Origin: Escherichia phage ECO95 1-6-1
Reading direction: 5' to 3' (one strand)
Length of the DNA: 5,346 nt
Sequence record: OR845275.1
Shown here in pieces: positions 5,270 to 5,346 of this stretch; the stretch's first letter is position 1; each line of letters opens with the position of its first letter. The position numbers and the translations under genes were made by a program. Under the pieces are notes generated by a model that saw only the letters and a list, made by a program, of their open reading frames with translations, was not told the DNA's origin and did not search any database.

Positions 5270-5346
5270 GACGCTCAAGTCAGAGGTGGCGAAACCCGAC
5301 AGGACTATAAAGATACCAGGCGTTTCCCCCTGGAAGCTCCCTCGTG
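5270..5346. repeat. Terminal redundancy: exact 77-bp copy of positions 1-77 (circular-molecule overlap)
   Basis: Direct comparison: 5270-5346 gacgctcaagtcagaggtggcgaaacccgacaggactataaagataccaggcgtttccccctggaagctccctcgtg equals 1-77. Confidence 0.9.

Follow-up and report, generated by a model that had tools for sequence, protein, structure and literature searches.

The identical 77-nt ends of a 5,346-nt record very probably reflect an assembler overlap on the circular ColE1-type plasmid pC

Introduction

Why should a stretch of DNA close with the very bases with which it opens? The window (the whole 5,346-nt stretch that was analysed) begins and ends with the same 77 nt. Direct terminal repeats are a common completeness signal for viral contigs, ColE1-type plasmids form multimers, and 77 is a member of the default k series of the assembler SPAdes. 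The identical ends could thus belong to a linear phage genome, to a multimer or tandem duplication, to an integrated plasmid, or to the way in which a circle was written down as a line. We consider these readings in turn, together with the genes and RNAs of the window.

Results

The end repeat. Bases 1-77 and 5270-5346 agree base for base, with no mismatch, and their sequence is present at these two sites only in the whole 5,346-nt window. The longest prefix of the window that is also its suffix measures exactly 77 nt. A repeat search returned one 77-nt family (D1, 100% identity, spacing 5269) as the only long repeat, and self-BLAST of the window, which served as the dot plot, gave the main diagonal and the terminal pair alone (E = 2e-36). 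Identity of 77 end bases by chance has a computed probability of ~4^-77, or ~1e-46. A preliminary description of this DNA had reported the last 77 nt as an exact copy of the first 77 and had proposed self-alignment as a check; its coordinates are confirmed by the end comparison, the repeat search and the self-BLAST, the last of which found no repeat besides the terminal 77-mer. The two copies are as follows.

1..77, no strand: terminal overlap, the copy to keep; real single-copy plasmid sequence in the RNAII primer region, internal and single-copy in NC_003457.1 and OR850910.1
5270..5346, no strand: redundant second copy of 1-77, read as an assembler k-mer overlap (k = 77), the copy to trim; 5346 - 77 = 5269 nt, the length of plasmid pC

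Identity of the trimmed unit. After reverse-complementing and rotation, the trimmed unit (1-5269) equals an independently determined circle, NC_003457.1 (Salmonella enterica subsp. enterica serovar Enteritidis plasmid pC, circular, 5,269 bp), at 5,268 of 5,269 bases. Size and gene order are those of pC along the full length, and the annotation agrees. The sole difference lies at window position 2948, which is C in the window and A in pC, and which gives A29 versus S in MbeD and R449 versus L in MbeA. The MbeD of pC has a protein accession of its own, while two E. coli relatives share another; this suggests that it is pC, and not the window, that carries the odd variant at 2948. The full-length relatives, pC among them, number seven and measure 5,268-5,270 bp, the six others coming from E. 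coli and Salmonella. As cited in PMC8073726 and PMC5864857, pC was described as a plasmid encoding restriction-modification (R-M) by Gregorova et al. (2002, FEMS Microbiol Lett 214:195).

A second record of the same circle. The record OR850910.1 ('UNVERIFIED_ORG: Salmonella phage S.Kent 1-2-1 clone NODE_38_length_5346_cov_46.940786', a SPAdes-style node name) shares with the window its circle, its total length of 5,346 nt and a terminal overlap of 77 nt; once rotated, its 5,269-nt unit equals that of the window with 0 mismatches. It differs in its Salmonella phage label, in its cut, which falls at window position 3663 inside mbeA instead of in the origin, and hence in its duplicated 77-mer (window 3663-3739). 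The terminal 77-mer of each record is single-copy in the other. A further SPAdes node of 5,753 nt (L006) has a terminal overlap of 483 nt at yet another cut point, which leaves a unit of 5,270. The repeat thus follows the cut point from record to record, and is therefore a property of the representation, an assembler k-mer overlap, and not of the DNA.

The same observation bears on the phage label. OR850910.1 is filed under Viruses as a linear, unannotated sequence with host S. Kentucky, from wastewater in Turkey, and is part of a phage genome collection. From its filing, host and wastewater source, one might take the window for a small phage genome, linear and with a true direct terminal repeat of 77 bp. 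NCBI, however, flagged that record UNVERIFIED_ORG, and it came without annotation. Moreover, among all ORFs of the window the PHROG matches were limited to the methyltransferase and Rop, and capsid, portal, terminase and a phage replication module were absent. All genes are plasmid genes, and a published plasmid is matched at 5,268/5,269 positions. Since one and the same circle ends in two different 77-mers in the two records, a fixed physical terminal repeat is impossible. We regard a phage genome as extremely improbable and reject the phage direct terminal repeat, for want of phage genes and of a fixed repeat sequence.

The circle of OR850910.1 reached a k-mer coverage of ~47 in material that was deposited as a wastewater phage of Salmonella Kentucky. 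It is conceivable, if rather unlikely, that the plasmid was physically packaged in capsids as head-to-tail concatemers by a generalised transducing phage, and was not carried over with host DNA; the 'wrapped' contig would then come from encapsidated plasmid multimers. Similarly named 'phage' records with ColE1-type ori DNA are OR848931.1 ('Listeria phage LM 4-14-1', 3,074 bp), OR845556.1 and OR844963.1. The first of these has a 77-nt terminal overlap and a unit of 2,997 bp at 97-99% identity to small blaTEM-116/TEM-1 plasmids; it resembles a cloning vector of the pUC type, or a contaminant, more than it does a Listeria phage.

Origin of the overlap. Our preferred explanation is that the window is a circular ColE1-type plasmid of 5,269 bp, essentially pC, in a single complete copy that would have been linearised by SPAdes with a largest k of 77. 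A de Bruijn-graph assembler that walks a closed cycle re-emits its starting k-mer at the end, giving 5,269 + 77 = 5,346 nt with identical 77-nt ends. The terminal repeat is then no part of the molecule, and the cut just happens to fall within the replication primer region. Identical 77-bp contig ends have been ascribed to the SPAdes algorithm acting on circular or circularly permuted molecules (PMC9409062), and a 77-bp terminal identity was used in another study to infer a circular plasmid (10.1101/2022.04.05.487141). In the window, too, the overlap length equals an assembler k value (77 nt), as it does in the sibling node. From this length and from OR850910.1 we infer that SPAdes with k = 77 produced the window; judging by the sequence, the molecule was probably a physical circle in the source sample. 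Taken as a whole, we give a probability of about 0.97 to the window being the known circular plasmid pC with a SPAdes-type 77-nt end overlap.

The junction itself can be followed in other sequences. A 200-nt probe across the junction from 5269 to 1 is intact within the linear text of NC_003457.1 and of NZ_CP083894.1. One metagenome contig (L005) goes 5,544 nt round the circle, more than one turn, through the junction. In another contig (L016) 5,508 nt are repeated exactly at a shift of 5,269, again through the junction, which is also crossed in L008-L010 and L017. A 40-mer from the R-M genes had no match in the genome-contig or viral-contig sets; of the scans with this 40-mer, only that of the metagenomes gave loci.

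Replication origin. The origin region was aligned to ColE1 (NC_001371.1) on the minus strand with correction for the wrap, the window being read from 557 down to 1 and then from 5269 down to 5100. The features of replication are the following.

1..502, minus: RNAII (replication pre-primer), 5' part, nt 1-502; start at ~502, leftward to base 1; ColE1 G641 (+1) aligns with 502
5228..5269, minus: RNAII, 3' part, nt 503-544, ending at the RNase H / RNA-to-DNA switch (GGAAAAACGCC motif); alignment ungapped across the junction
510..538, minus: RNAII promoter, -35 TTGAGA at 533-538 and -10 TAATCT at 510-515; identical to ColE1 in the alignment
393..498, plus: RNAI, antisense copy-number regulator; Rfam RF00106, full-length, 66.6 bits (gathering score 47), E = 4.6e-11
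4622..4813, plus: rop (rom), stabiliser of the RNAI-RNAII kissing complex; Pfam PF01815, E = 7.6e-38; a Rop family protein in pC and ColE1

The alignment comprises 744 columns at 91.5% identity, is collinear, and passes without a gap through the junction of 1 and 5269, with ...GACTTGAGCGTC on one side and TGTTTTTGTG... on the other. In ColE1, the origin lies 555 bp downstream of the RNAII start (PMC11012335, PMC4555960). The switch accordingly maps to ColE1 641 + 555 = 1196, in the AAAAA run of GGAAAAACGCC, which aligns with window ~5228; on the plus strand of the window a T run at 5227-5231 is this motif region of the RNA-to-DNA switch. RNAII therefore runs from 502 to 1 and then from 5269 to 5228, ~544 nt in all. 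The duplicated 77-mer is RNAII nt 426-502 and lies 42-118 nt upstream of the RNA-to-DNA switch, the cut itself falling 42 nt upstream. As the 77-mer is inside RNAII, RNAII crosses the artificial junction.

The window thus has an antisense RNAI (RF00106), a collinear RNAII promoter, primer and RNase H switch motif with the hexamers and GGAAAAACGCC conserved, and a Rop/Rom protein (PF01815), as a ColE1-type replicon does. TTGAGA and TAATCT we take to be the RNAII promoter hexamers from what is known of ColE1 and pBR322. A terminator-like hairpin of RNAI was found at 468-492; the promoter and terminator scans gave counts near the shuffled expectation and were used for this hairpin only. By Pfam, none of the ORFs of the window has a Rep domain. 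An ORF of 52 aa at 213-371 (plus) within the RNAII region is without a Pfam match, and its RefSeq name, in ColE1 as well, is 'replication initiation protein' (WP_071791734.1). To our knowledge, ColE1-type replication needs no plasmid-encoded initiator. Considering this, the location inside RNAII and the lack of a Pfam match, the label is probably a propagated spurious annotation.

By analogy with ColE1-type replicons, RNAII made from the promoter at 510-538 (minus) would form a persistent hybrid near the origin, be cut by RNase H at ~5228 and prime DNA polymerase I. RNAI (393-498) would pair with the 5' part of RNAII, aided by Rop, and block primer maturation, which would set the copy number.

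These results bear out the preliminary description, which had seen in the window a circular replicon of about 5,269 bp written with overlapping ends, not a tandem duplication, had placed both copies of the repeat within a single ColE1 ori, and had expected origin features to cross the artificial junction. Once trimmed and rotated, the unit matches the circular NC_003457.1 with 1 mismatch, and the junction is continuous and single-copy in pC, in ColE1 and in many contigs. OR850910.1 has its own 77-nt overlap elsewhere and holds the 77-mer of the window internally, in a single copy. Both copies in the window are RNAII nt 426-502, and in the ColE1 alignment RNAII spans the junction. We refine that description on one point only, the cause of the repeat, which it had not named: a k-mer overlap from a de Bruijn graph (SPAdes, k = 77).

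Multimers. A piece of a head-to-tail multimer, or a tandem duplication with a second origin, would also begin and end alike if it were cut 77 nt into the second copy. Records of 1.8-2.05 turns do exist, namely NZ_CP083894.1 (9,459 bp), L016 and L017. The overlap of the window, however, is exactly an assembler k value, and it recurs at another cut point in OR850910.1, also of 5,346 nt; a multimer cut at random would not yield k on two occasions. Genuine multi-turn records look different, NZ_CP083894.1 repeating ~3.7 kb. The unit has a cer-like resolution site, 93% identical to that of ColE1. Multimers, if there were any, would leave the replicon unit at 5,269 bp, and a graph built from short reads collapses them to one cycle. 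We therefore hold a cut multimer to be very unlikely as the source of the repeat. Tandem duplication of the origin is rejected, the self-comparison being without any repeat besides the 77-mer. A monomer circle and a head-to-tail multimer cannot be distinguished by sequence alone; the unit would be 5,269 bp in both cases.

NZ_CP083894.1, deposited as a 'complete' circular plasmid, comprises ~1.8 head-to-tail copies of the unit, one stretch of which is just 92% identical. We suspect a long-read assembly of this plasmid that was noisy or over-circularised, or else a dimer from which a part was deleted.

Integration. Were the plasmid integrated in a chromosome or a large plasmid as a cointegrate, the identity of the ends could be read as an insertion-site duplication. 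One contig would fit this, LYWL01000040.1 of GCA_001709145.1 (L015), which joins the pC unit from 5269 to 239 to 6.5 kb of ColV-plasmid DNA with tsh and IS30. The window, on the other hand, is one plasmid unit alone with no foreign flanking DNA. The exact endonuclease protein occurs in 3,799 blocks of the assembly collection, on contigs of which the longest was mostly 5-10 kb and never >20 kb. In complete genomes, every full-length match is a free plasmid of 5,268-5,270 bp, apart from one multi-copy record of 9.5 kb. Typical target-site duplications, moreover, are far shorter than 77 nt. Integration is thus improbable in the extreme, and for the window we reject it, in a chromosome as in a larger plasmid, given the lack of a foreign flank and the absence of the endonuclease gene from contigs >20 kb.

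In L015 itself, the join is between 6467 and 6468. On one side stands the pC-like unit (5269 to 239) at 99.8% identity, on the other 6.5 kb at 100% identity to ColV-type virulence plasmids (tsh/hbp autotransporter, IS30), with no shared sequence at the join. The partner DNA is plasmid, not chromosome, and the join falls exactly at the window's own cut point between 5269 and 1. The contig may have been misjoined, or another strain may hold a real cointegrate. At 5268-5269 the relatives depart from the window, and 1-250 of the unit is near-identical to ColE1. With the L015 join at the same place, this raises the suspicion that the cut point was not random; it may mark a graph branch at the edge of a conserved ori block that a second ColE1-type replicon of the sample would also have.

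Mobilisation genes and cer-like site. The mobilisation features and the cer-like site are listed below. For these genes as for rop and the R-M genes (mbeA-D, endonuclease and methyltransferase), all Pfam matches are above thresholds.

4813..5100, minus: oriT/bom region, with the nic-region motif GTATACTGGCTTAAC at 4951-4965; 93.4% identical to ColE1 1325-1612
4235..4582, minus: mbeC, a MobC/NikA-like relaxosome accessory protein; Pfam PF05713 and PF21983; RefSeq annotation
2692..4245, minus: mbeA relaxase, 517 aa from MIVKFHARG, open frame to 4293; Pfam PF03432 Relaxase
3039..3557, minus: mbeB, nested in another frame of mbeA; Pfam PF04837 MbeB_N; RefSeq annotation
2799..3032, minus: mbeD, nested in another frame of mbeA and holding the 2948 SNP; Pfam PF04899
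2484..2720, minus: cer-like multimer-resolution site, core GGTGCGCGTAA-TGCGACG-TTATGGTAAAT at ~2512-2484; 93.2% identical to ColE1 3705-3940

Matching RefSeq E. coli records annotate the relaxase as 'mbeA: plasmid mobilization relaxase MbeA', and the gene calls of related contigs likewise give 517 aa. The GTATACTGGCTTAAC motif is presumably the nic site, as in the bom regions of ColE1 and pBR322. With MbeA, MbeB, MbeC, MbeD and a ColE1-like oriT, the window has a ColE1-type MOB module, and MOB-suite typed it as MOBP, predicted mobilizable. As in related systems, MbeA would nick oriT (4813-5100) with the aid of MbeB, MbeC and MbeD, and pC may be mobilised in this way by a conjugative helper plasmid.

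The aligned ColE1 segment 3705-3940 ends in the cer core GGTGCGTACAATTAAGGGATTATGGTAAAT. The arms of the cer-like core are those which, from established knowledge, we take to be bound by XerC and XerD. The core centre counts 7 nt, compared with 8 nt (TTAAGGGA) in ColE1 cer, and the accessory flank is 93% identical. Together with host XerCD, the cer-like site would be expected to resolve multimers.

Eco29kI cassette. The remaining genes form an R-M pair.

1755..2399, minus: Eco29kI restriction endonuclease (GIY-YIG type II); Pfam PF09517, E = 1.8e-69, 233 bits
607..1755, minus: C5-cytosine DNA methyltransferase, partner of the endonuclease; Pfam PF00145, E = 4.2e-59; RefSeq annotation

Of 213 residues aligned between the endonuclease and the crystallised Eco29kIR (PDB 3MX1 chain A), 210 are identical, and the methyltransferase ORF overlaps the stop codon of the endonuclease. 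The window thus has an Eco29kI-family endonuclease that adjoins a C5-methyltransferase, as an Eco29kI system does. Of CCGCGG, the presumed target sequence, the unit has 0 sites against ~1 expected, an absence that is not significant. The cassette (607-2400) has a GC content of 0.33-0.42, compared with 0.52-0.62 in the backbone; as expected, this AT-richness fits acquired cargo. Judging by analogy, the endonuclease and the methyltransferase would restrict unmodified incoming DNA, and they may stabilise the plasmid. Related contigs (L008-L014) have this backbone too, but their cargo is another: colicin E1/A-type genes, an EamA transporter, BanI-like R-M and type III R-M.

Discussion

The practical result is simple: positions 5270-5346 should be deleted and the sequence annotated as circular. 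Left untrimmed, the record splits RNAII in two, counts 77 nt twice and misplaces ORFs and features close to its ends. Matching ends do not speak for a viral genome, and a well-known mobilisable ColE1-type plasmid with Eco29kI R-M sits in GenBank and in phage collections as a Salmonella phage. The importance of the finding is practical only; it is correct and yet ordinary, for it comes down to a familiar plasmid that carries the usual assembler overlap, and adds nothing new.

The comparison with known systems places the window on three counts. As to its ends, it does not differ from the k-mer terminal overlap of SPAdes: the ends are exact, their length is that of the largest k (77), and removal of one of them leaves the true circle. 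As to its sequence, it shares with pC its length, gene order, ColE1-type ori, rop, mbeABCD, cer-like site and Eco29kI-type R-M genes; the two differ in one substitution (2948), in the linearisation point and in the 77 redundant end bases, which only the window has. As to its type, its genes and RNAs make up a complete mobilisable plasmid of the ColE1 type. ColE1 (NC_001371.1) is alike in ori/RNAII/RNAI (91.5% identical), cer (93%) and oriT (93%), and has the same rop and mbe set. Unlike the window, it has a different central region in the cer core, and its RNAII is ~11 nt longer, owing to an indel block at ~331-347 of the window. Where pC has the Eco29kI R-M cassette, ColE1 carries its colicin E1, immunity, lysis and exclusion genes.
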